A stretch of 64,000 nucleotides of DNA from Octopus sinensis (taxonomy: Eukaryota). Shown in pieces: positions 1-61,198 of this stretch. Both the position numbers and the translations under genes were made by a program. Under the pieces are notes generated by a model that ran no database searches, had not been told where the DNA came from, and worked only from the letters and a program-made list of their open reading frames with translations. Location of the stretch: positions 64,232,001-64,296,000 of the forward strand of contig NC_042998.1 in the NCBI RefSeq assembly GCF_006345805.1, read 5' to 3'. Within the stretch, counting starts at the first letter, position 1. Every line of letters starts with the position of its first letter.

Positions 1-423
1 AAATCCACTCAATCACACGCAGATTTTACCATAACGATAAATACGCGTGTGGTTCAATTGATACATCGACGTTATAATTCAAATGCCCCAACTAACAGCG
101 CGCCAAACTATCACGGAAAAACAAAACAGCATTTAGAATAAATGCAGCATAATTATAATTAATTAATAAGGTGAGGAAAAGATACTAATTTAATAGTATA
201 TTATTCAACACCAGTGGCCTAGTGCTCCGAGAAACTGGATTATTATAATATTTTATAACATATATAATATTTTTACAAATTAAATATAAGAGAGTGGTCA
301 CTATATGGCTCACTCTAGCACCAGTTAATCCAAAAGGTTTCAACACGAAAATACATGTTTCCATGAAAGTCAGTACGATTGTTAGCTCACACGGACAGGG
401 CAAATAAAAAATAAAACAAAATA

Positions 424-519: not shown

Positions 520-956
520 GATGAAATCCACTCAATCACACGCCAGATTTTACCATAACGATAAATACGCGTGTGGTTCAATTGATTACATCCGACGTTA
601 TAATTCAATGCCCCAACTAACAGCGCGCCAAACTTTCACGGAAAACAAATACAGCATTTAGAAATAAATGCAGCATAATTATAATTAATTAATAAGGGTG
701 AGAGAAATAGATACTAATTTAATAGTATATCTATTCAACACCAGTGGCCTAGTGCTCCGAGAAACCTGGATTATTATAATATTTTATAACATATTATAAT
801 ATTTTTACAAAATAAATATAAGAGAGTGGTCACTATATGGCTCACTCTAGCACCAGTTAATCCAAAAGGTTTCAACCACGAAAATACATGTTTCCCATGA
901 AAGTCAGTACGATTGTTAGCTCACACGGACAGGGCAAATAAAAAATAACAAAAATA

Positions 957-4979: not shown

Positions 4980-5137
4980 CTGTAAATGTAATATATGACA
5001 ATTATTCGGTAGCCATGATGAAACTTGGAGTTTCGGATATGGGGGTGGAAATCCACTCCGCCATCTCTTCAGTTATCCGGCCATCGGAAAAAGCATTTTA
5101 TGATGGCTACCGAATAATTGTCATATATTACAGTTAC

Positions 5138-14541: not shown

Positions 14542-15287
14542 CCTTCTTTCTTCAAATTTTCTTCCGTTTCTCGCCGAGTGTTTTCCATATACCTAGGGCA
14601 GAGAAGGGCATTGCATGCATTCCCAGATTACACACGCAAATTCACAGATAAAATATGTATTTAAAAATTAATAGATAAATAAATTCATGGATGGATGTTA
14701 TTTTCACAGCGATAGTGCTCTTCTCGGTACATAAGCCGTTCCAGTTAATACGATTTTTTGCACTTTCTGTAGGAATCATTTTCAAATATATTTCAGTACC
14801 TTTTTTTATCATTCCTAGAGATCCTACAATTATTGGTACTGTAGTCGCCTTGAGATGCCACATTTTTTCAATTTCTATTAGCAGGTCTTTATATTTACTA
14901 ATCTTGTCAAATTCTTTCGCCGCTATATTGTGATCGCAAGGGATACTCATGTTAATTAATAAACACATCATTTTTGTCGGATTTTTTATAAAAATATCCG
15001 GTTTATTAGCTTTTATAGTCCTGTCGGTCTGCACGGGTAAGTACCATAGAATCGACACATTTTCTCCCTCAGTCACAGCTTCAGGATGCTGTTTATACCA
15101 TTTGTCAGCGGTTTTGATTTTATAATGCCGACATATTGTCCAATGTAAATACTGGCTGACTGTCATGTCTTGCTTTATATTCTGCAGGTGCTAAGTTTCT
15201 ACACTCTGAGATTAAGTGGTCTATTGTTTCAATCTCGTCGGTACAGAATCGGCATTTTGGGTCAGCTCCATTTTACATCACATTGGC

Positions 15288-15399: not shown

Positions 15400-16620
15400 T
15401 TTAATTTAACTATGATGCTACCAATATTGGGAAGAGTAGAGAATGAGATTCTAACTGTGAAATGATTCTATTATATCTATGCGAAGTAGAGACGTTCTTT
15501 TCTAACATAGCCATAAAGTTTATAATTGTTTGCGGATAATGAATAGTTGTATGGGATATTGAACCAAACGAAATTTTTACTTTTAAATTTAAGGTGTAAG
15601 TAAGGACGGGTAATATTTGTACTATCCCTGTTCCCCAGAATGGTGCCTTGATTAATAGCTTTATTTACATTTCTAGTAGATTCCACATCTGGAGGAGTAA
15701 CCATTTCTTTCACATTGTCCACTTTCGTATCTAACCTAAGCTTCATACTCGTTTTAGTATCCTGTCTTTTATCGAAACAAACAATTATTATTAGGCTTGG
15801 AGGATGCTTCATCATTTGGTATATTTTCACAACTAAGTAAATTAGTAGACTTTCTATTAAACAAAGTCTCATTTCTTTCCTCTTTAAAAAGGTGCTGAAC
15901 TTACAGGACTAAGAAATGTAATTTCTTGGTCATATCCTGCCTTAGACAAAGTAATAATTCAGTGGTATGAATGGGAATTAAATTTATCAATGTTTGATGA
16001 TAATTTAGTAATTCTCCTAGTAGTACTTTTAACTACCGATTTTAAGAAATTAGGGTGTGATTTGATAATTTATTCACATACCTTCTAACCACACATTCTT
16101 TCCTATAGGGGTAGTATAATTTAGAGTTAAAGTTTAAAGTAGTATCAAAAATATTTACTACCTTAATACTTAAGTTATAGCTTTTGAAAAATTTTCTAAT
16201 TCTTTTTCTCATTCTTTCTATGATTGATTTTTGTTGCTACGGATGAGGAACACAGCATCATCCCTATATAAACCTATATAGATTGTTATGCAATTACTTA
16301 GTTTCCTCAAATGTAAGTTTTTTTTTCTAAGTGGGTGTTCCTTGAATTTTACATTAGCTGTTAGATCAAATAAGTCGTTTTCAAAATTTTCCAGTAGTGC
16401 ACTAGGTGGAGGATTTTTCTGCTTTTGAATAATATTTTTTCTCATATGTTTTTAGAGTTCCATATTTCTTCTTAGTCTCATTCGAACAAACTCATTTTTC
16501 TATGGATTTGTAGCGAGATATAGGCATCTTTACTATGTAAGGGGATGTCTTTCTGAGAACATTCTATATTTACCTTTTCCATCTTGTTGATAATTAAGTA
16601 CTAGAAATATCGTTTGGGTA
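15400..16620 (-). mobile_element. Decayed Penelope-like element (RT remnant)
   Basis: LENFENDLFDLTANVKF, GLYRDD (RT catalytic motif) and FVWFNIPY (PLE WFNPPY-like), with many stops and frameshifts. Confidence 0.7.
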
Positions 16621-16671
16621 TGGTATATGAGTTCAGCAAATATTTAGATTCATATACCTATGTATGTATGC

Positions 16672-16720
<49 letters not shown>

Positions 16721-19700
16721 GTATATGTATGCATATGTATGCATGTATACGTATATATAGGCGTATGTATCTATCTATCTGACTGCCTGTCAATATATAT
16801 AATCACATATAGAGATGTGCAGAGTGCGTGCAATGGTGGGGTGTATGAATGATTAAGAATAATTTAGAAATGGAATGAAGATAAACTGTAGATATCATAT
16901 ATTTAGTAGGTGCTGTGACAACTCCGAACACATTCCGATCTCTTCAGCATATCGTAATTTACCGGTAATTAATAAATCATAGATTATTGAAATACCTGAA
17001 GACACAGAGCGATTAAAATCTAGTAAATTGATTTAAAATAATAGCTGCAGATGTTTATTAATGACACATTCTCTGTCATTCATAACAATTTATGTATACG
17101 CTAACTGCGCAAAATAAATAAAGCTCTTAATTAACAGTGGAAATTATGCTAGCGTCTTATAAGAGATTTAGTTAATGTAAAGCATTTTGAAAATAGGGGA
17201 TACATTTTATTTGTATTGCACCAAATAAAAGGGATAACATTTTAGCAATATTTGCTTTTCATTCAGATGACTGAGATACGAGTAGCTTGACCGAATAAAT
17301 TTTAGGACTCAGTCAGGAAATATTTAATGAAACTTAAACATACTTAATATAGTTGATTCACGATTATCCTATTTAAATTATATTTATAAGACATATGAAG
17401 CGCGTCCGTACGCATTTCCCTCAAAACTTTAATTCATAAGGATTGCAACCATTACAAAATGTTTATAACTGCTAAGCAACTAAAAGTCTGGCAAGTATTT
17501 GTAACTACAATATTACCTACAATCCACACCCCATTTGCCCTACATGTGAAGTATGTGATAGCGGATGTGTTGTCACTAGCTAACAGAAACGACGGATGCT
17601 GTCCCTAAATATTGATTTAAATTTTAGCACAAGGCCAGCAAATTCCCAGTTGAAAAATTCTGTTCAACTGATGCTTAGTACTTTTTACCCCAAAAGGACG
17701 AAAAGTAAAGTCAGCCTCTGCAGAATATGAACTAAAGGCATAAAAGCAAACGAAATAACACTAATGCATTTTGATGGATGAGCTAAAGACTCCGTCAGCT
17801 CGCTGCCTTATGCTCTTCTAGATATTCCTGTATTACAAAGACATTTTAATGATTCTTTTAAATTGTAATCATTATATGTGTCAGTACTTATGCTGTAAAT
17901 GTATTTGCGCCCAGAACTCGTAAGCACGTTAATGTGTTGTGGTAAATATACATATATATACGAGTACAGACGCATAAATATACTCATAGTTTCCGTAAAC
18001 ATAAAATATTGCGAAAAATATTCTGTCAAAACGAGGATTATAACGTGAAATAAAATGTAAATGTAAGGGAAACTTAAGCGTTAGTGAACTAGAAAAAATT
18101 TCAATGGAAGAGAAGACAAATATATTGGCATTAAAAACAAATATCGATCATTTGTGTTAATGTACCATTATTATAGTTTTTTCTCTTGAACATTTATCCA
18201 TTAACTTAAATCATGTGAAGTTCCTCAAGGAATCAAGTACAATAAAAGAGGAAATTTTAATAATAGACTGCAATGAATTTCTTGCTTTTTTGCTAAAATT
18301 TGAATCAATATTTAGGACAACATCCGTCGTTTAGGTTCGCGTAATTTGTTTTCTGCTAACTAGTGCTAACACAACGTCTATTGCATAAACGTAGCGTGCA
18401 TATAAGATATGGATCATAGGAAGTATAATACTTATAAATTATAATTGCCACACATTTAGTTGATTATTGGTCATAAAGATTTGGTAAAGATTGTAATACT
18501 TATGCATTAGATTTTTGAGGGAAATACGTAAGAACGCCCTTCATATGTCGTATAATTATAATTTAAATAAAATATTTAAGCACCAACTAATTCAGTACGT
18601 TTAAGTGTCCCTGAACTTGGAAGTAGAAGGAATAAGGTTATTGGGGAGAGAATTATAAACGGTAATGTTAAAAGACCAACTGCATATAACAAAGTGCAAA
18701 TGCATTTGCACATCATTTCTGATTTTATGCATCATCAGCAGCTCCATCACAGGAATGTATAATACATCCAATAACTAAATGAATATATGTTTGTGCGCAA
18801 ATATCGAGTAATATTGGACTATTTTCAAATAACTAAAGTAATGTAATTGTACTTGTCGTAGGCGTAATACAAATGATTATGCTATATAAATTTAATTTAT
18901 TTCTGGGACATTAGTATCTGCCATAAACAGTTTTAGTTCTCCATTAATAATATATTTTATGCGATGGATACTGCCTTTTTACTTCAATGTATTTACGTAA
19001 ATCACAAAAAGGACACTTCAGAGATTTTATTCTCTGGCGTTGAATTATTTGATATAGCATTTTCAGTGAGATTGTATGGATACTGGCAGTAGACATGCTG
19101 ATATATGAAGAATAGTTATGAATGAAAGGATCCCATTATACTGCATCATTCATTCTCAAGAGTAAAATTAAAAGTAAGAGAGAGGAACGTTTCAATAAAT
19201 ACTTCACAGAATTCGAAGTATAGCTATAGGATGTCTACGCAAATATGAAGTTTATATTTATGGTAACATTTATTACATGTATACTTAGATATTTACCAGA
19301 CAAAAGCGCGCATGTAACCCATATATTAACATTTTACCCGTAAAGCTAAATGTCTAGTTACTAACGAAAGCGTTTGGAGAATATCGTACGATAGACAACT
19401 AAAGAACTTAGACACGGAAGCATGAATAAATATTGACACAAGTACAAAACATCCAATGAAATAAGTAGCGTCCTTTTTAAGTTTCCTCAAGATGTTCTAT
19501 ATCCAATACTGATTACTTTCAATAGAGGACATTGGTGCTGCACTTTGGGTATATTCAAGTGTTTAACAATGTGCATTATCGCCATAATCTATAGTAAATA
19601 TATTCCATGCATTCAACGAGACTAATCACCATATATCATGGAGGACTTGGATTAAAATAACTGAATATCAAGTCAGAGGAAGAATAGTTATAGTGTGTGA

Positions 19701-20222: not shown

Positions 20223-21200
20223 TACTGGAGTACTGGAGTAAACATATAAATGTGAAACGAGGTGGAAAAAAGAGTACTCAAATACCAGAGGTAGAGTAAT
20301 ATGCTTTATTTAAAAGCAGCAGAAATTTAACAATTTCACGTTCCCGTTCGTCGGACAGGTTTGTTAAAATGGAACCGAGATGATAATTCGATCCAAACTA
20401 GCATAAACGATACACCTTTAAAAATGGGCTTGTTTCATTGGTCCTTTAAAATAACGGTCATAAGCGAGCGATAAACAAAAATAAACAAAACAAAATAAAT
20501 GAGTTCAATATAAAATTATAAAAATCGAGGAAAACTTTAAATTGAAGTGTTGACACGAATACATATTGCCATTAATTATGTAGAAAATATAATCGATTAA
20601 TGCAATTAATACATAAAAACTGAAATTAAAATATATTAAAATATATTAAAGTATTTGACAACAGTATATACTCATTCTAAACCATCAATATACATGTATA
20701 CATGAAAATACACAGATATTCCCATTCGATATTATTAAGTATGGTAAGTTTTTCGATAATTTTCGAATTTTAAAAGTTGACATTTTTTTCTATTGCGGAC
20801 GAGGAGGTGCGTCTGAGAAGAAGATTTGAAAGAATGAGGATGTATGTATAAGAGGCTTATAATTGATCGTCTCGTGTTTATATATTTACTCTGAGGTGTA
20901 CCTGCTGATGACGAATATTTAACTTGCTAAACTAAAATCAGAAACTAATTGGTCCAGAAAACTAGCTGGCAAAAGTTTGTTTTCATTTCGTTCCTTTCGG
21001 GATTTTATACCTAATTTTGTGGTTTTGAAACCTAGCCATTCTTTCTAGAGCGAGGAAACCCATGAGTGGATTACTTCTATGTGTTTAAATGTACACAGCA
21101 TTTTCTGAAAAATACATAGTCTTTGGACTAGATTTTTACACGGTAGGCCACTGGAAGTGGAAATTTCTATTAATTTCTATTTCACTTAGATGTGATTAAG
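20223..21200 (-). mobile_element. PLE-like remnant between (TA)n tracts with a broken HHR
   Basis: Minus strand at 20326-20368: UUUAACAA..CUGU CCGACGA ACG GGAA CGU GAAA then directly UUGUUAAA; stem III and the cleavage site appear deleted. Downstream motif TACCTCTGGTA...TTTCCACCT. Confidence 0.5.
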
Positions 21201-21237
21201 TATATATATGTATATGCATACATACACACACACACAA

Positions 21238-21667: not shown

Positions 21668-22867
21668 ATGTGTGTGGATGTGGGTGTATGTGTGCGCGTC
21701 TGTGCATGTTGTGTTTGTGTGTTCATGTGAGTGTATGTTTGTGTGTGTCTGTGTGTGAATATGATTTAAATTAGAATAAATCGTTTTGCCGAATTATAAG
21801 AATTGCATAGTAAACAAGAATTTGCAGATTATAGTCTCAGTTCCCCCTGGGAGAATTTTATGAATTCATTAATGAGACTTGAGCAAAAATGATATTACTG
21901 CATGTCTGTGTGTTTGGTGATGTATAAGAGCGAAATGTGGTAGTGCTTAAACACACACAGTTTGAACCTGTAAAAGAAATAAGAAATAGGACTTGAAGTA
22001 AAGTGGTTGTGTAGTCCTGTCTATTACATGTAAACAATGAAATGCAAAGTCACACAAAAGTAATTAAACTACATTTAATTATATGTATGGCAAAGCATAT
22101 AACTAGAATGCTATATAAATCGAAATGCTTGAAACGTAATAAAAGTTACAGTAAAATAGATATTTCTACACGGAAAATAAAGAAAATATATGCAGAGAAT
22201 ATATTATAAACGAATTAGATTTATGTAAGTATTTGAGTGGCCGTCTACAGCGTTATAGGTTTTGTGCAGTAGTATTTAGTCGTTGTGTCAAAGTGTAATT
22301 CTTAAAAATACTAAATGAAGATACCGTAACAAGAGTGCTGCAATTGTAAATTATATGCGGTACTGACAATTCAAATTTTGCAAATAACAAATTTATCAAT
22401 AACTTTAGGAAATTAAAATCAAGACCTTAGCACGTTAAATGCAGTAAATGATGAAATCCATAAATTTCAATGACCACGTAAGTACAATTTTTTCTCAAAG
22501 ATTGATATTAATTTCTAAGTAAATAAAACATTTAATCTTCTCTCGTTTAAGTGAATTTGGCAAAATAGTGTATGTGTGGTAGATGAAGCCGCTTGTAAAT
22601 CCGAAATACTGATATTCACGTTAGTAAAAGCAGTATGTGCTACACATCAAACTCGTTGTAAGGTACGAAATCTGTATTTCACTTCCTAATCAAGAACGAA
22701 ATCGTTTTTGAAAATGTAGCGAATATGTGACAACTCTGCAGGTAAGCATATTTTTAATCACTATTTGTAATGAGAAGCAAGTTATATGTGTTATTAACGA
22801 GATATCCAACGTTAACTATTAAGTATATTTCCGATGTACACTCTTGCTGATTCACCTATTCAGTTAA

Positions 22868-23770
<903 letters not shown>

Positions 23771-23790
23771 ATCTATCTATCTATCTATCC

Positions 23791-23842
<52 letters not shown>

Positions 23843-23863
23843 GTCTATCTATCTATCTGTCTA

Positions 23864-24419
23864 TCTAACTGCCTGCCTATATACATAATTATTCAATACA
23901 GGTACATGAATAAATATGTACACACATAGGAGAAGGATTTGCATGTGTACCTGTTACAAGGACATAGCATAGCGCCTAGTATATTTTTGTAACGATCAAG
24001 AACACCGTTTGACACATGCATTGTTTCGCATAAAAGTTTCCTTGAACAAAGCTCTTAATGTTCCCATTGCCATTATCTATTAACCTGAAATAATTCCCCG
24101 CTGAGTGCGAGTAGAGTGTTTTCTCTATCCAGTTGTGTCGCCGGCGATGTTCTGCTAGGCCATGCTGTCAATATTTAGGACCGCACCCGAGTGAGTTCCA
24201 CTTCCTGTAAACGATTGCATTGGCACATTGAAAATATTTACAAATACATAACTCATGCTCTCCAGTTACGAACACATACGCATAATGACTTGATTTGTTT
24301 ATTTTTACTTGTTGTTTGTCATTTGTATGCGTGCATGCGTGCATACACACAAATCTCACATCATACTCGTATGTATAAATGTATTTGTCTTTGTATGAGT
24401 ACATTCGTGTGAATATTCG

Positions 24420-24470
<51 letters not shown>

Positions 24471-24495
24471 ATCTATCTATCTATCTATCTATCTA

Positions 24496-24548
<53 letters not shown>

Positions 24549-25125
24549 GTCTATCTATCTATCTGTCTATCTAACTGCCTGCCTATATACATAATTATTC
24601 AATACAGGTACATGAATAAATATGTACACACATAGGAGAAGGATTTGCATGTGTACCTGTTACAAGGACATAGCATAGCGCCTAGTATATTTTTGTAACG
24701 ATCAAGAACACCGTTTGACACATGCATTGTTTCGCATAAAAGTTTCCTTGAACAAAGCTCTTAATGTTCCCATTGCCATTATCTATTAACCTGAAATAAT
24801 TCCCCGCTGAGTGCGAGTAGAGTGTTTTCTCTATCCAGTTGTGTCGCCGGCGATGTTCTGCTAGGCCATGCTGTCAATATTTAGGACCGCACCCGAGTGA
24901 GTTCCACTTCCTGTAAACGATTGCATTGGCACATTGAAAATATTTACAAATACATAACTCATGCTCTCCAGTTACGAACACATACGCATAATGACTTGAT
25001 TTGTTTATTTTTACTTGTTGTTTGTCATTTGTATGCGTGCATGCGTGCATACACACAAATCTCACATCATACTCGTATGTATAAATGTATTTGTCTTTGT
25101 ATGAGTACATTCGTGTGAATATTCG

Positions 25126-25126
<1 letters not shown>
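23864..25126. repeat. Near-identical direct duplication (706-bp offset) bounded by (TATC)n
   Basis: 23864-24420 matches 24570-25126. Identical ORFs at 24168 and 24874. Confidence 0.9.
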
Positions 25127-25161
<35 letters not shown>

Positions 25162-25162
25162 C

Positions 25163-25218
<56 letters not shown>

Positions 25219-25229
25219 CTCTCTCTCTC

Positions 25230-25284
<55 letters not shown>

Positions 25285-25789
25285 AATAGCTAGCAAGTTA
25301 TACACAAAGTAGACGTGAAAACATTTGTGTACAAAAGATTCAGTGTGTAACACCGAACATAATACCTCATTACTGTTTCAATGTAACAGCTATTAAGTGC
25401 CTAAAGAAATAGGATAAACGGATAGGTCAACATTTGTCAGAAGTCAATTATAAAAACAGTGAAAAGAATTTATTGTGTTCAACAATACAAAGTAAATATC
25501 ACACCATCGTTCTGAGGATCATCAGTAGAAATATTTAGTGAGATGATTTACACCTATTGTATACTCGACAGAATTAATTGGAAAAAATCCTTTAAGAGGT
25601 GATTCGTTTCGATTCATTATCCTATGCGTATGTTTATCTCATGCTCAGCTGTTTTAATAATTATTTTAGACTATGAATTAGAACCTACGCCACTGAAGAC
25701 AGATAGTTTTAATAAGCTTTCCTACAGTTGTATTATCTCTTTAGGCAAGCCAAAGAAATCTCCTTGTGCGTTGGATAAAAAAAAAACAA

Positions 25790-28175
25790 TAATAAAAACA
25801 GCGATGGACTTCTTTTGGATTCCAAAAGATGTTCAACGAATGTTCATGTCGTACTACGACAACCTGAGGATGAGATTTACAGCAGGAAAGTTCACAACGG
25901 AGTGGCAACGGCTTGAAATAGGTATTGCAGCCGGATTCACGATATCAGTCATCTTGTTCGTGCTAGTCATGGAAATGCTACTCAGATCTACAAACTGGGA
26001 GAAAGCTGTTACAAAGACACAATTAAGGGCTTTTATCGACGACGTAACTATATTATCGGAAAGTAGAGAAGTAGCAGGGGGAACGTTAGAGCGGTTGGAC
26101 GAACTGATAGGATGGGCCAAGATGAAATTCAAAGCCAAAAAATCTCGAAGCGTGGCTTTCGTGAAAGGAAGGCAAGAAGAAGTGAAATTCAGGAAGTGAA
26201 GACATACCAACGATGGTATAGAAACTTATTAAATGATAAGAAGCAAGGGAAAGAAACACACGAGTTAGTAGAACAAGGATTAAAGGTAATTGACAGAACA
26301 ACACTGCCAGGGAAATTCAAGTGTTGGATTCTGCAATTTGAGCTGTACCCAAGGATAATGTGGCCATTGCAACTGTACGAAATAGCCTCGAGTAGAGTAG
26401 AAAGGTAGGAGAAAAGATGCAGTGTGTTTATCAGAAAATGGCTCGGTCTGCCGAAACCACTGAATACAACTGCACTATATGGAAAATCCGTGCTGCAACT
26501 ACCAATAGCATCAATCGCCGAAGAATATAAGGCAGGAAAGGCAAGGACAGTAATGATGCTAAGGTATTCAAAAGATCAGAGCATTCGGGAAAATCCTCCA
26601 AAGGTACGAACAGGGAGGAAATCGAAGGCGGAAGAGGCAGTAAACAGTGCGATCGAAAAACTCAGGCACGCAGATATAGTCGGAGCGACGCAAGAAGCTA
26701 GAACCGGCCTAGGGTCGCAAAATGTCAGGCCATTTTGCAAGAGCAGTGTAAAAGAGATGAAAGAGGCAGTGGTATACGAAGTGAGAAAGGAGGGAGAAGA
26801 AAGGCGAAATGTACATTTGGTACAATGCAGTCAACAGGGACTTTGCCTGAGATGGGAGGAGTATGTGATCAACCACAGAATATCATGGAAGGAACTTTGA
26901 GCTTGGGAACAAACAAGAACATCCTTCCTGATCAAGTCTACCTTCAACGTTCTACGCTCACCGGCGAACTTAGTCCGGTGGAATTTAAAAACAACCGATG
27001 AGTGTAGATGCGGAGAGAAATCGACGGTTAAACATGTTCTGTCAAGTTGCAGACTAGCACTTGAAAGATATACTTGGCGCCATAATCAAGTCCTCGGCGT
27101 CATAAGCGCAGCACTCAAGGAAAAAATCGAGAGGTACAATAGGGGAGAGTACCCAAAATTAGAAAAGCGCAGGAAAATATACTTCCACAAGGGAAAAGGT
27201 TATAAAACCAGGCCTACAAATACAGTATTCGAGATGGACGAAAGATGGAAGGGATACTGGGAGGTGGCCACGGACTTGGAATGACAAGTAATATTTCCAC
27301 TAATAAAACCAACAAAAAAACCGGATTTAGTTCTATGGAACAGAGACCGGAGAATGGGAATTTTACTAGAAGTGACAGTACCTTGGGAAGAGAACATCGG
27401 CAATGCAGAGGACCGAAAGGAGAAGAGGTATGAAAAGCTAATCGAAGAATGCAGAGAACAGGGATGGAATGTGGAATATTATCACCTGGCAGTGGAGGCT
27501 AGAGGCTTCATTGAAAAGAAAATGACAACGCTTTTCAAAAGAAGATTTGTTTTTTCTAGACTCGAGCTGCGTAAACTAATAAGGAAAGTACAAGAGGCGG
27601 TCGAAAAAGTCAGCTTCTATATATGGCTGAAGCGGGAAGACCGAAAATGGCTTGAAAGTCATAAACACACCGACGGGAAATAAGATCATTAGGTGAGACA
27701 AGCTGAGTGACAGTTGACGGTCGTGTAGAAGAATTGCGGGCTAAAACTTCGCGCCTTCACTAGTCAGTTAAGGTGAGACAGTGTCACGTGACAACTTGCT
27801 TGGGCTGCCTGCTGGAGCCTTTGCGGCAGGTAATTAAAGGCAAAAGTTTGACAAGACAGTCAGTCCCTGGCTGACGCTCGCTGACGATACATCGAAGAGG
27901 TCAGGGAACAGAAGAAAGAAGAAGAAAGAAGATATGCACCCAACAACAGAACTGAAGACACCTAGGAAAGTGGGGACCCCGCCACGTCTAAACGGTAGAG
28001 AGGTAGGGGCCGAAACCGGACGTGGTTCCTCCTAATGATGTCTTGAGCTAACTGGATCCTATAAAGGATCTGTTGAGGTAGCGGACCACGAAATATGGTT
28101 GTAATTCCTATAGCAATCTAAGTGTAACTTAGTTGTAGAAATGATAACATTCCACCGATTTTGTTCTAACAAATG
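25790..28175 (+). mobile_element. 5'-truncated Hero-like RLE non-LTR retrotransposon (RT + CCHC + restriction-like endonuclease), pseudogenised
   Basis: WQRLEIGIAAGFTISVILF, AFIDDVT, KFKAKKSRS, LPGKFKCW, RKWLGLP, CRCG..KHVLSSC..RYTWRHNQVL, KPDLVLW..LLEVTVPWEE. Stops or frameshifts near 26195, 26406, 26898 and 27281. ORF ends at 27683, followed by a ~490-bp 3' UTR. Confidence 0.85.
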
Positions 28176-50859: not shown

Positions 50860-51650
50860 TTAAATCTAAGAACCACAATTAATTGTAACCTTACAGAAGT
50901 CTATTTCTAGGAATAAACATAAAATTTCGTAATGGCAAATTAAAATCCTACTGCAAAACAAATGAGAAAGCCAACCTCAATCAATCGTTAAACAATTATA
51001 AAATCTGTTGAGCCAAATGTAGCTAGACCAAACAGTTGAAGAGAAAAGGTTTATGGTCTCATACATGATTAAAATACCAATATAGCTAAATCGTTTTTAC
51101 TAATATATAATTAATAAACACTCCCACACAAATACCATAAGGTTTTGAATAGAAATACTGATAAATTTCGATATAAATGTTCCCCAATATAGATTCATTA
51201 GTACGCAGTCACAATTAAAATGCGGTAAGAGATTGCAATTATATATCTGAACCGCTGCCCTCTGAATAATAGCAGTCTAGTAAAAGAAATTTTGCTCCAA
51301 GCCAAAATTACGGACCCCAACATACTAACAAAAACATATATAGGAAGGACGGGCAACTAGTTTAAGGAAAGATATAAACATTATCTGGCGTCATTAAGGG
51401 ACCAAAATATGAGACGCACGATATCCCTATCTAACATGATATGAACATTCAAAGAAGGAAATGTAAGCAACTCCCAGAAAACATGAAGTGTTATTACTAC
51501 AGTAGGAACATACAGAGAAAGTGATACCAAATATGAACATCATCCAATCAAAAGATAACATCTTAAATATTAGGGATGAAAACTTCTCTCCCTCTATGAA
51601 CAAGCAATATTATGTACTTTGAAAATATGTACTTTGAATATATGCCTCCT
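50860..51650 (+). mobile_element. Decayed Penelope-like GIY-YIG remnant
   Basis: KTYIGRTGN*FKERYKHYLASLRDQNMRRTISLSNMI* at ~51330-51445. Confidence 0.65.
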
Positions 51651-52054: not shown

Positions 52055-52099
52055 CATATTTGTGTAAATGTGTGTGGAATAATATTATGATTCATAATT

Positions 52100-53670
52100 A
52101 CCATACCATAAACCCTCTACTAATTTAATATATTAGAGCTAAAATAAGAGCTAATATATTAGCTCTTACAGTATTCACTGTAAAGCTATTACAGGGAATT
52201 TAGTTAAGAATATTTCACTTAGACTTTCTAGATTATCTGCTAATGTTGATAACTCCAACGATAAAGCCGACTTTTATAACTCAGCCATACATCTAGCGGG
52301 CTTTAACGAAACATTACCTATATTAACCCTATTGACATTAATTCTACCTCTATTAATCAGGACATGAAACCAATTCATAACGATATTAACCGTTTAAATT
52401 TTAATTCGAATAACAACACTAGATCGAGTAATGTAATTCTGCAGCCTAAGGGAAATAACTGTTCTTCTCTCACCCCTTTTTCGTTATAAAGGTACATCGA
52501 GGACTTTTAAAAGATAATTACACTAATAACAAGGTATGTCATAGAAAAACTGTTTAGTTGGTAATTCCATATTGTAAACAGATCAAATTTAACCTTCCTT
52601 ACCAGTTTTGTAAAGCTATAGATAAGAATTTCACCGAAAAATCATGATGCTATTCGGTTGTTGATTAACACCGAATCAAGATAGGGTTTTCTAACACTAA
52701 AAACATCTCCCAAATCATCTCTGCACATAATAATAAGTTGTTAAATACAAATACACTTAATGAAAATAGTAACATTGATGATATTAACACTAACCATTCA
52801 TTAAATAATAATAGCAACAATATTAGTATTTCTGATACAAATTCCAATCGCATTCGTTTCATTAGCAATAGTTCTAAGACTAGGAACTCTGTTTATCAAA
52901 GTAAAACTACTTCCGGTTCAGACGTCTTTACTTATATAGGTATTCCTTCTCAGTTCTCCGAAACAATATCTAAACATAACTAATCTAATCTAATCATTTA
53001 GACATATCAATAAACAGAACAATACTGGGCTGAGTAAATTAATCTGGTATCTGAAGGATCATAATAAACAGTTCGATTTGGAATGGAATATTGTATCTAA
53101 ATCATTTGCATATGATAAAGTGAAATATTTTTGCCCGCTCTCTAACGATGAACTTTATTTCATGCTGTTCTCAGAGAATCCTCCTGTTAACACGCTTCCA
53201 AGATTCAAGAATGCATTTATCGTTGCAACCTTTAGTAAAAACATACCTTAAGTTCATATCAGTGATTTCTACCAACCGGTAAAGTTCGACACTTAACTTA
53301 TATTTCACTCCCACTAAATATATCTATTTCCATGCCTTTAAACTTTATTCCTATTCACGTATCGCCCTATATTTCTCCACTTTCAATTTTCTTCTAATCT
53401 ATTTCTTCCTCCTCCCCTTTATATAAAATGCCTTTGACGTTGTATATATATAAGTTTTTTTTTATTATATATATGACGTACCAGTATATATGCAGTATAT
53501 ATATGTAGTAATCACATTCGGTTAAAACGTCTTATTTATGTGTTTTCTTTCTATTTCTTTCCCAGATGAGAAGATTGCATTGCATTTCATCATTTTCTTC
53601 CTTCTGGAATATCAATCGAAACATATATCGGAAGTATAAAGATTTGAATAACACCTGCGTTTAACTTCAT
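52100..53670 (+). mobile_element. Decayed Penelope-like element (linker + GIY-YIG + 3' HHR)
   Basis: NISQIISAHNNKLL, SVYQSK..DVFTYIG, NNTGLSKLIWYLKD..EWNIV..CPLSNDE. HHR-like motif in the 3' region. Confidence 0.75.
53558..53634 (+). ncRNA. Degenerate hammerhead at the PLE 3' end
   Basis: UUCC CAGAUGA gaa GAUUG...CAAUC GAAAC AUAU AUC GGAA. Two core substitutions. Confidence 0.5.
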
Positions 53671-57721: not shown

Positions 57722-57806
57722 GACTCTGTTGAAGGCGAGAGCCACACCCAAGTACCTTCATTTATGTGGGGTACAGTGACGTCTTGGCAGAAACAGCTGT
57801 AAGAAA
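57722..57806 (+). ncRNA. Degenerate hammerhead motif (CUGUUGA core)
   Basis: CU CUGUUGA AGGCGAGA...UCUUGGCA GAAAC AGCU GUA AG. Palindromic stem-III loop, followed by ACTACTGGTAC. Confidence 0.5.
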
Positions 57807-58331
57807 CTGTTCTTATTTCCCTATTCCAGAAACTACTGGTACTTTATATATGTAAAAACAATTTTTATACTTGTATTTATATTCTCATAAGTGTTTAAAA
57901 TACATAGACATTATAATGCCTAATAGGTGATGCATACCACCTCTTGATCCCATCCATTTTCTTCTTGTCGTATATATATATATATATTATATATATATAT
58001 ATATAATATATATATATATATGCACCCACACTTGTCCTATGTTTCTTCTTATATGTATTCGTAAGTTATGTATGCATGTAAGTAAGTATGTATGTTTGTG
58101 TGTGGATGTGTACAGTTGTGTCTTTCAGTTGAAGGGTTGAAAAGGCATGTCTAAAGACTTGATACTGCGCCACCTGTTCCTTCTGCTGGCTGGCTCAGCT
58201 GTGTATTATGCAATAGAATGTGCAAGTCTTTAGCCGCGCTCAAGAACCACACAAGAGCCTCATATTGCATCATCTATGACACATTTCAAAGATTCTTTCT
58301 ATCAATCACTTTCACTGTATACAACAAAGCA

Positions 58332-58374
<43 letters not shown>

Positions 58375-58559
58375 TAAGCAATAAGGGTTTAGCAACGAAT
58401 TGCCTTACCACATACCGAATTTAGAAATAGCAGTCAAAGGGTTATAGCTATTTCTTCTACTAAAAAGGGAGATCTCAGTAAAAACAGCAATTGGAAGGCT
58501 GACACAAACAGGTAAGAGAGAATGAATTAACTGCAATCTATCAAACATTTTTAAAGTTA

Positions 58560-58666
58560 TCCACGGACGTACGTTTCGAAATCAAGTTTTTAGGAAAGCA
58601 TAAGAATTAAATATTAAATATTAAATAATTCTATCTTACCGAAACTTCTTTTCTCTTCAGCGTAGA
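58560..58666 (-). ncRNA. Type-I hammerhead ribozyme (canonical core) in the inverted arm
   Basis: UCUACG CUGAAGA GAAA-AG-AAGUUU...AAACUU-GA-UUUC GAAAC GUAC GUC CGUGGA. Confidence 0.88.
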
Positions 58667-59171
58667 ATACTATAATCATAAATTTAAAAATGTTTGATAG
58701 ATTGCAGTTAATTCATTCTCTCTTACCTGTTTGTGTCAGCCTTCCAATTGCTGTTTTTACTGAGATCTCCCTTTTTAGTAGAAGAAATAGCTATAACCCT
58801 TTGACTGCTATTTCTAAATTCGGTATGTGGTAAGGCAATTCGTTGCTAAACCCTTATTGCTTAGTATTACTTAAATTTTCCTCGAATGAGGCTTTTACAT
58901 GCCGAAGACTACTTGGTGTAATGATAATTATTCCAAATTAATTAATTTCACCCTTCATTATTACGGATAACCATATTGTATCTCAGTAGATGACCACAGC
59001 ATCTTGTTTTGGCTACACGCGGGTGGGGAGGGGCTGTTGACACAATCGTTTCATTCACAAATTTGAATTCGGTGATACTAGTTGCGGATTCTGGCTCGCT
59101 CTGATACTGAGTTGAGTTGGTGCCTCCTAGTATCTCAAAATTCAATATATAATCATTTATGATTATAGTAT

Positions 59172-59278
59172 TCTACGCTGAAGAGAAAAGAAGTTTCGGT
59201 AAGATAGAATTATTTAATATTTAATATTTAATTCTTATGCTTTCCTAAAAACTTGATTTCGAAATGTACGTCCGTGGA
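59172..59278 (+). ncRNA. Type-I hammerhead ribozyme (GAAAU variant)
   Basis: As at 58560-58666 but with GAAAU GUAC GUC. Predicted cleavage after 59272. Confidence 0.82.
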
Positions 59279-59772
59279 TAACTTTAAAAATGTTTGATAG
59301 ATTGCAGTTAATTCATTCTCTCTTACCTGTTTGTGTCAGCCTTCCAATTGCTGTTTTTACTGAGATCTCCCTTTTTAGTAGAAGAAATAGCTATAACCCT
59401 TTGACTGCTATTTCTAAATTCGGTATGTGGTAAGGCAATTCGTTGCTAAACCCTTATTGCTTAGTATTACTTAAATTTTCCTCGAATGAGGCTTTTACAT
59501 GCCGAAGACTACTTGGTGTAATTGATAATTATTCCAAATTAATTAATTTCACCCTTCATTATTACGGATAACCATATTGTATCTCAGTAGATGACCACAG
59601 CATCTTGTTTTGGCTACACGCGGGTGGGGAGGGGCTGTTGACACAATCGTTTCATTCACAAATTTGAATTCGGTGATACTAGTTGCGGATTCTGGCTCGC
59701 TCTGATACTGAGTTGAGTTGGTGCCTCCTAGTATCTCAAAATTCAATATATAATCATTTATGATTATAGTAT

Positions 59773-59879
59773 TCTACGCTGAAGAGAAAAGAAGTTTCGG
59801 TAAGATAGAATTATTTAATATTTAATATTTAATTCTTATGCTTTCCTAAAAACTTGATTTCGAAATGTACGTCCGTGGA
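59773..59879 (+). ncRNA. Type-I hammerhead ribozyme (GAAAU variant)
   Basis: Same as 59172-59278. Predicted cleavage after 59873. Confidence 0.82.
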
Positions 59880-60373
59880 TAACTTTAAAAATGTTTGATA
59901 GATTGCAGTTAATTCATTCTCTCTTACCTGTTTGTGTCAGCCTTCCAATTGCTGTTTTTACTGAGATCTCCCTTTTTAGTAGAAGAAATAGCTATAACCC
60001 TTTGACTGCTATTTCTAAATTCGGTATGTGGTAAGGCAATTCGTTGCTAAACCCTTATTGCTTAGTATTACTTAAATTTTCCTCGAATGAGGCTTTTACA
60101 TGCCGAAGACTACTTGGTGTAATTGATAATTATTCCAAATTAATTAATTTCACCCTTCATTATTACGGATAACCATATTTTATCTCAGTAGATGACCACA
60201 GCATCTTGTTTTGGCTACACGCGGGTGGGAAGGGGCTGTTGACACAATCGTTTCATTCACAAATTTGAATTCGGTGATACTAGTTGCGGATTCTGGCTCG
60301 CTCTGATACTGAGTTGAGTTGGTGCCTCCTAGTATCTCAAAATTCAATATATAATCATTTATGATTATAGTAT

Positions 60374-60480
60374 TCTACGCTGAAGAGAAAAGAAGTTTCG
60401 GTAAGATAGAATTATTTAATATTTAATATTTAATTCTTATGCTTTCCTAAAAACTTGATTTCGAAACGTACGTCCGTGGA
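60374..60480 (+). ncRNA. Type-I hammerhead ribozyme (canonical core)
   Basis: CUGAAGA at 60380-60386; GAAAC GUAC GUC at 60463-60474; stem I UCUACG/CGUGGA. Confidence 0.88.
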
Positions 60481-60796
60481 TAACTTTAAAAATGTTTGAT
60501 AGATTGCAGTTAATTCATTCTCTCTTACCTGTTTGTGTCAGCCTTCCAATTGCTGTTTTTACTGAGATCTCCCTTTTTAGTAGAAGAAATAGCTATAACC
60601 CTTTGACTGCTATTTCTAAATTCGGTATGTGGTAAGGCAATTCGTTGCTAAACCCTTATTGCTTAGTATTACTTAAATTTTCCTCGAATGAGGCTTTTAC
60701 ATGCCGAAGACTACTTGGTGTAATTGATAATTATTCCAAATTAATTAATTTCACCCTTCATTATTACGGATAACTATATATATATATATATATATA

Positions 60797-61192
60797 AAAT
60801 TTAATAAGAGTAGAAATTGATATTAATCAATTAAAACCAGTGGCCTGGCATATTAAAAAAATCCGAAGATTAAAATATTTTTACATACAAAATTTAGAGG
60901 ACTGACCACTGAAAGTGGATGGTCAACATGCTAGATATAGACGTCAAATCGCCATGTTCCACAAAATAGATTGCGGGTATTCACATGCGTGGATAATAAC
61001 AATCGAAACTGATCAGTACATAAGTAACGACTTTTATTTCGTATATTTTCATTTGTCTTGCTTATTTTTAAGACTTTGGTTCGTGTTGGTTTTTTATTTG
61101 AGAACATATTTTTTGTGAAAAATAGCGATTTGACGTCTATATCTAGCATGTTGACCGTCCACTTTTAGTGGTCAGTCCTTTAAATTTTGTAT

Positions 61193-61198
<6 letters not shown>
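60797..61198. mobile_element. Short inverted-arm element in (TA)n containing the 3' half of an HHR
   Basis: ~60878-60968 is the reverse complement of ~61108-61198. GAUUG...CAAUC GAAAC UGAUCA GUA at 60969-61018. Confidence 0.7.

Follow-up and report, generated by a model that had tools for sequence, protein, structure and literature searches.

The window analysed here is a 64,000-nt stretch of the Octopus sinensis genome (NC_042998.1, positions 64,232,001 to 64,296,000), which is 2.7 Gb in size and rich in microsatellites. It contains members of several non-coding repeat families in which type I hammerhead ribozymes are predicted. The 601-nt family is represented by an insertion at 58371-60774 (+), consisting of an inverted, 5'-truncated arm (58371-58683) that runs to a short end, followed by tandem units that run to a long end, with both ends of the insertion in (TA)n. 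It carries a predicted type I hammerhead at 60374-60480 (+; stem II with a 76-nt insert, stem III minimal and palindromic, cleavage predicted after 60474), a first hairpin, with GGT/ACC at its base (hairpin 1), at 60630-60654 (+), followed 12 nt on by the short end at about 60666, and a motif made of a 5' box and a second hairpin (hairpin 2) at 60701-60758 (+), in which positions 60717-60719 pair with 60753-60755 and after which the long end lies at 60774. Other copies of the motif lie at 60096-60161, 59495-59560 and 58895-58959 (+).

The 533-nt family lies on the opposite strand, with the motif at 690-759, 1224-1294 and 164-229 (-), arrays that end 13 nt past its 3' arm, a hairpin 1 with a GAG/CTC base at 823-848 (-) located 10-12 nt before the short end, and a predicted type I hammerhead at 430-512 (-; 51-nt insert in stem II, z -5.1). 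The 601-nt and 533-nt units form young tandem arrays dispersed over many chromosomes, with at least 237 and at least 249 matches, respectively, among the matches listed (39-40 scored candidates); copies of the 601 unit are 97-100% alike, and no open reading frame of 120 aa or more was found in either unit.

The third family, referred to by its end at about 60797, occurs mostly as truncated fold-backs. Its window copy has the motif at 60802-60855 (-), where a G-U pair stands at the hairpin base in place of the G-C of the family majority, and a hairpin 1 with a GAC/GTC base at 60900-60925 (-) and again at 61152-61177 (+), the latter in an inverted arm that ends in (TA)n at 61196. This arm retains the 3' part of a hammerhead at 60967-61025 (+), the first half of the core having been lost by 5' truncation in comparison with family copies. 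The window copy is without an intact hammerhead; in family copies one is predicted, and it precedes the motif by about 215 nt. We considered whether this element is a DNA transposon bounded by terminal inverted repeats and rejected the idea, as the repeat is an arm of the fold-back and does not include the tail.

A further member at 20719-21207 (+), overlooked by the first-pass annotation, lies back to back with an element at 20223 and comprises a hammerhead-like core at about 20905, a motif variant with a GGA base at 21136-21191 and an end in (TA)n at 21207. The variant scored a covariance-model E value of 0.35, and related copies carry the standard motif. Of 69 matches to this element, 7 stop at query positions 384-390 and 49 reach 480-489. 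Similar stretches of about 20 nt occur at both termini of the 489-nt element (20719-20740 and 21186-21207), that is, a terminal redundancy of the monomer.

No Rfam model gave a hit at its gathering score in the window and no hammerhead was scored; the best 150 of 209 weak hits lie away from these features, mostly in microsatellites. Hammerhead cores were found with a descriptor of our own, which gave 15 matches in 864 kb versus 3 in one shuffle. The window also contains a two-copy direct repeat of about 705 nt (23770-25274, 97% alike), bounded by (TATC)n, and broken coding pieces at 25603-27683 (+), 14642-15190 (-) and 22851-23387 (+), which we take to be non-LTR retrotransposons (restriction-like endonuclease, L1/Tx1-like).

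The shared motif and its paired base

The first-pass annotation had proposed that one cis motif follows the hammerhead at five places. The strings quoted for the 601 family were found at 60701-60763 (+), with the array end at 60774, those of the 60797 element at 60851-60802 (-), with the end at about 60797, and those of the 533 family at 751-690 (-). The proposal held for these three families and failed for the two other places, the 20223 element and a match at 57722. The motif consists of a 5' box, a hairpin with a GGT base paired to ACC, and then a C and a T-rich run.

The motif is commoner than background: two exact patterns of its 5' half gave 3,349 and 6,143 genome-wide matches, compared with 4 and 248 for the respective reversed patterns. 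A profile scan of 800 kb of evenly spaced genome samples returned 15 matches, 6 of them rows used for training, whereas two shuffles yielded no match; these numbers point to motif copies in the tens of thousands across the genome. Local alignment of whole units placed the best match between the 601 and 533 units exactly on the motif (z 6.6, 100 shuffles). The pairs 533/60797, 60797/b (b being a fourth motif-bearing family) and 60797/21136 were also best at the motif, with z of about 2, and the 601/60797 pair gave nothing above shuffles. No comparison yielded a better match outside the motif, where the 601, 533, 60797 and b units align no better than shuffles.

For a prediction test, 70 loci were read out of the first 100 places listed for the first pattern; their 73 distinct hits were chosen on the 5' half alone, ignoring the 3' side. 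A 3' arm was present 12-60 nt downstream in 57 of the 73 hits, compared with 362 of 3,000 random TGGT sites (12%), and a 3' arm together with a microsatellite within 25 nt in 44 hits, compared with 27 of the random sites (0.9%). A predicted hammerhead was detectable upstream in only 13 of the 73, with its cut 153-215 nt before the motif (7 of 600 at random), most copies being 5'-truncated. A metagenome scan gave 14 motif matches, none of them ending in a microsatellite, which were taken as chance. The motif is a real cis element common to many hammerhead-bearing non-coding repeat families.

The hairpin was analysed in an alignment that started from 26 clusters obtained by scans of all loci; seven clusters were removed as chance matches or 20223 copies and one as a duplicate family, and six rows from other comparisons were added, giving 24 rows that represent about 15 families by our own grouping. 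The four basal pairs are paired in 95.7% of cells, and the pairing score of the basal stem was reached by none of 500 shuffles. The second basal pair is G-C in 17 rows and A-U in 6, and the fourth is A-U in 11, G-C in 4, G-U in 4 and unpaired in 4, counts which overstate the independent changes because the rows include several sister families and were in part chosen for having a hairpin. The change from G-C to A-U at the base may represent one to three events.

The hairpins vary in length from 22 to about 46 nt, and their tops are unrelated in sequence yet paired, with z below -2 in 22 of the 24 rows against shuffles of the inner part. Among 14 further places picked by hand, five have GGT, three of these with an ACC arm, and nine have GAT, which is answered by ATC in four, ATT in one, ACC in one and a degenerate arm in one, and by no arm in two; over the whole set, four places are without a 3' arm, one is degenerate and one opposes A to C. 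In some families a small hairpin can form in the interval from the 5' box to GGT; it is not retained in those with GAT and was rejected as the conserved fold.

Insertion ends and their hairpins

Insertions of each family terminate in two clusters within (TA)n, one upstream of the motif (the short end) and one downstream (the long end). The numbers of upstream and downstream ends were 18 and 7 for the 601 family, 8 and 11 for 533, 31 and 44 for 60797, and 1 and 6 for b. Since end clusters lie on both sides of it, the motif belongs to the Penelope tail. Short ends are found mostly on the arm that is inverted and 5'-truncated (examples are 58371-58683, 1382-1558 and 60967-61196), and such an arm with a one-sided tail, a feature of Penelope-type insertion, was observed in the 601, 533, 60797 and b families. 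The insertions are both fold-back and tandem, and each of the two fixed ends follows a hairpin. In tandem arrays the unit continues beyond both ends, which fall inside the repeat unit. The predicted ribozyme cut is located 227-281 nt upstream of the 3' arm of hairpin 2, and neither insertion end coincides with it.

The hairpin before the short end, hairpin 1, had been overlooked by the first-pass annotation. It has a base similar to that of hairpin 2 and was recognised by eye just before the short end in ten of ten families; in about six of these it was also recovered cleanly by the energy model. The bases, as read by eye, are GGT/ACC, GGC/GCC, GAC/GTC, GGA/TCC and GAG/CTC.

The distance from the motif to the insertion end, which the annotation had proposed to measure, is modally about 12 nt and not fixed, ranging at hairpin 2 from 0-1 to 14-20 nt. 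End distances peak at 12-13 nt past both hairpins in the 533 and 60797 families and past hairpin 1 in the 601 family. In 40 copies of the 601 family examined, the microsatellite begins 12 nt past hairpin 1 in 13 of 17 ends, and the long end lies 14-20 nt past the 3' arm of hairpin 2. In 32 copies of the 533 family, the corresponding distances are 10-12 nt in 6 of 8 short ends and 13 nt in 8 of 9 long ends. In 60 copies of the 60797 family, the short end lies 12 nt past hairpin 1 in 8 of 27 ends, with a spread of 10-27 nt, and the long end 10-12 nt past hairpin 2 in 29 of 41. One family terminates 0-1 nt past the hairpin base, so the spacing varies between families, and the AT-rich ends blur each junction by several bases. 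The conserved structure that the annotation had placed near the element ends was thus borne out, in that the hairpin base covaries and the ends follow the hairpins.

Autonomous Penelope-like elements and other tail types

The annotation had also expected the motif in autonomous Penelope-like elements. The genome contains many autonomous families, both Neptune-like (from the GIY-YIG search) and Hydra-like, including a young Hydra-like family whose open frames are about 900 aa long (loci L301-L320, e.g. L309); a Pfam search did not recognise the Hydra-like proteins. In all, 150 of 5,029 GIY-YIG candidates and 150 of 9,126 Hydra-type reverse transcriptase candidates were scored, 30-50 loci of each were read, and Penelope coding pieces were contained in 125 of 405 loci. 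In these 125 loci, a sample of part of the genome's Penelope families, the motif was joined to the coding part in none; it lay downstream on the same strand in three, each time across a (TA)n run. The expected tie to element ends was therefore found, and the expected presence in autonomous elements was not, within this sample, an absence that the annotation had named as a ground for refutation.

Nine 3' regions of Neptune-like, Hydra-like and other families gave a best profile score of 4.2 bits or less. Covariance-model searches over 14, 88 and 7 loci matched only in neighbouring non-coding insertions, the tails of 14 loci of the 900-aa family gave no model hit, and local Hydra-like tails scored 8.7 bits or less. 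The Neptune-like families have tails of other types, and a pattern search of the loci found no Naiad-like protein motif. In the 900-aa family the long end follows a separate hairpin at 14-15 nt (9 of 12 ends), the same design in other letters, and two Hydra-like families combine long-stem-II hammerheads with a faint likeness to the 5' box. Neither a Hydra-type tail hairpin nor, among the 125 loci, a coding partner was found for the motif-bearing families, and the hairpin grammar differs. A partner lineage of Hydra type is our guess.

Other observations concern the Hydra-like elements. At one locus (L287:1016-2545) a motif-bearing long end abuts, with no TA run between, a copy of the 900-aa family that is truncated at its 5' side and points the same way; this may reflect a template switch or insertion into the same TA run. 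In L301-L320, folding predicts a helix of 12 bp where the end repeat meets the frame, enclosing the long end and closing just before the start codon; such a helix, if formed, could couple translation and copying. Within the window, 52089-53670 (+) holds a decayed Hydra-like Penelope element with 42-55% identity to the 900-aa family and related to locus L262, which includes a long-stem-II hammerhead-like region near 53560-53630. Old Hydra-like coding fragments lie at 51247-51441 (+) and about 15500-16950 (-), the latter preceded by a hammerhead half-core, and at 4993-5077 (-) a further hammerhead family of Hydra type (that of L198) is represented by a 3' stub ending in (TA)n. Compared by eye, a stretch of one locus agrees with the 3' end published for Hydra-1_Obim.

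The 20223 element (20224-20718, -) is the 3' terminal part of a Penelope element of Hydra type. Its tail has a different, bulged hairpin at 20276-20297, and the hammerhead of the window copy is damaged. The covariance model gave no hit for it in the window and 8.2 bits in a family copy, and copies of the family end about 28 nt past the 3' arm proposed by the annotation (21 of 51 ends). An endonuclease piece was found in 7 of 30 loci of this family, contiguous in L074, L083 and L089, and Hydra-type reverse transcriptase and GIY-YIG coding runs into the 20223 unit, as judged by eye from protein motifs against File S7 of PMC8557442. The hammerhead resembles that of Hydra-2_Amil in File S2 of the same source. 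Among the six published Hydra sequences compared by eye from PMC8557442, the motif is absent and three have a bulged tail hairpin like that of 20223.

The match at 57722 proved to be chance. It lies at 57832-57842 within a degenerate copy of another long-stem-II hammerhead family (57725-57970, +), about 128 nt from the family end, and no 3' arm was seen in the 20 loci read. The 57722 and 20223 families have a common 9-mer near their long ends (57940-57970, +, and 20283-20292, -), and the letters before (TA)n are CCG in both, which may be a second tail type or chance. The window alone holds at least two tail types.

A proposed positioning signal and related systems

Penelope-like enzymes are the closest retroelement relatives of telomerase. 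To our knowledge, it is not known how these enzymes pick an internal start on their RNA, nor what retrozymes need for mobilisation. The annotation had read the motif as a recognition or priming signal for the Penelope reverse transcriptase; the structure and the ends agree with this reading, and a single motif at all five places does not. We consider it fairly probable that the motif is an RNA positioning signal for an internal start of reverse transcription by a Penelope-type enzyme supplied in trans. More tentatively, and as something possible rather than expected, the two hairpins may act as a ruler in which the reverse transcriptase grips the hairpin base and starts about 12 nt downstream, with one hairpin for each insertion end.

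By this mechanism, the Penelope-type reverse transcriptase would grip the element RNA at the hairpin base and the 5' box, and its GIY-YIG domain would nick the (TA)n run. Copying that begins about a dozen bases 3' of hairpin 2 would give the long end and the direct arm, copying that begins about a dozen bases 3' of hairpin 1 would give the short end, mostly on the inverted arm, and the stretch between the two starts would be the tail. The families would then be parasites of one Penelope lineage, keeping this handle while the rest diverges. For a Penelope protein of Anolis, copying in vitro is described as starting within the RNA, at two sites between which the tail lies, with no ribozyme cleavage needed and with AT-rich DNA nicked or preferred (PMC11167929). 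By analogy with these two start sites, the two ends observed here may be read as two start sites. Weighing against the proposal are the lack of a motif-bearing autonomous element among the 125 loci, which is its chief weakness, the variable spacing to the ends, the relatedness of the aligned rows and the ability of the hairpins to fold nearly as well as DNA.

The hairpins might instead act as DNA, with the GIY-YIG endonuclease recognising the hairpin in the cDNA or donor, cutting about 12 nt away and trimming both ends. We regard this as improbable. The hairpins are near-palindromic and fold nearly as well on the other strand, the tail has been ascribed to endonuclease-mediated resolution in PMC8557442, and, according to work cited in PMC11167929, recognition by the Drosophila endonuclease depended on the tail. 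However, the stems include pairs of the G-U type, the ribozyme-sense strand is 1.2-2.3 kcal/mol more stable for all four window hairpins folded, and the tail ends of the Anolis element are reported to be reverse-transcription start sites (PMC11167929).

It is less probable still that the motif is inherited baggage, the slowly decaying part of a single old Penelope end repeat, without a current function in determining the ends. Several families do show relatedness outside the motif (601 to d and k, 533 to g), the layout of long-stem-II hammerhead, hairpin 1 and hairpin 2 is common to them, and no living partner was found among the 125 loci. This explanation is at odds with the failure of the 601, 533, 60797 and b units to align outside the motif, with hairpin tops that were replaced while their pairing was kept, and with young families, such as the 601 copies, that still end at the same offsets. 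An RNA 3'-end signal, by which termination of transcription or nuclease cleavage about 12 nt past each hairpin would leave an RNA end for the enzyme to copy from, is similarly very unlikely: a hairpin followed by a U- and A-rich run does look like a terminator or processing site, and two hairpins would yield two RNA ends, but arrays of many units were inserted whole, so that the RNA reads through the motif repeatedly, and copying of the Anolis element starts internally whatever the RNA 3' end (PMC11167929). Among the sequencing runs that contain the unit, none is recorded as RNA; contigs of four runs cross the long end into the next unit, although contigs cannot show RNA ends.

Under the positioning-signal reading, a covarying hairpin at near-constant spacing from both ends names the exact bases to change in an existing in vitro assay, and the motif lets hammerhead repeats be sorted by the enzyme lineage on which they depend. 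The ruler, if true, would explain the Penelope tail, define a minimal handle for retrozyme hitch-hiking and echo a helix of telomerase RNA. That helix, the template-adjacent helix (PMC4993307), is a stem-loop too: its base is conserved, a related reverse transcriptase binds it, and it lies 5' of the copied stretch. The telomerase helix stops copying, whereas here copying would pass through the hairpin, and the likeness is offered as an analogy only.

Descriptions of retrozymes, of their connection with Penelope-like elements and of the tail have already been published (PMC7229834, 10.64898/2026.07.22.740005, PMC8557442, PMC4209133). The literature covered, which excludes Repbase entries and the supplements of 10.64898/2026.07.22.740005, gave no description of the motif or of paired end hairpins; the motif thus looks undescribed, while the kind of system is in print. 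As described for metazoan non-LTR retrozymes by Cervera and de la Pena 2020 (PMC7229834) and by Li, Clavereau and Pollet 2026 (10.64898/2026.07.22.740005), the families consist of non-coding tandem units with a type I hammerhead, a weak palindromic stem III and low GC, occurring in many dispersed arrays together with Penelope-like elements. They differ from those retrozymes in their units of 457-601 nt and stem II inserts of 36-77 nt, and in a shared end hairpin, which the consulted portions of the two sources do not describe. Li, Clavereau and Pollet link retrozymes to the end repeats of known autonomous elements, a link that was not found here among the 125 loci.

The (TA)n targeting, fold-back insertions and type I hammerheads are features shared with the Hydra-clade Penelope-like elements described by Craig et al. 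2021 (PMC8557442). The families also recall the Anolis Poseidon element PAc, as presented by Frangieh et al. 2024 (PMC11167929), in having two fixed ends within the unit that bound a tail far from the ribozyme cut, an AT-rich target and a stem-loop at the start region.
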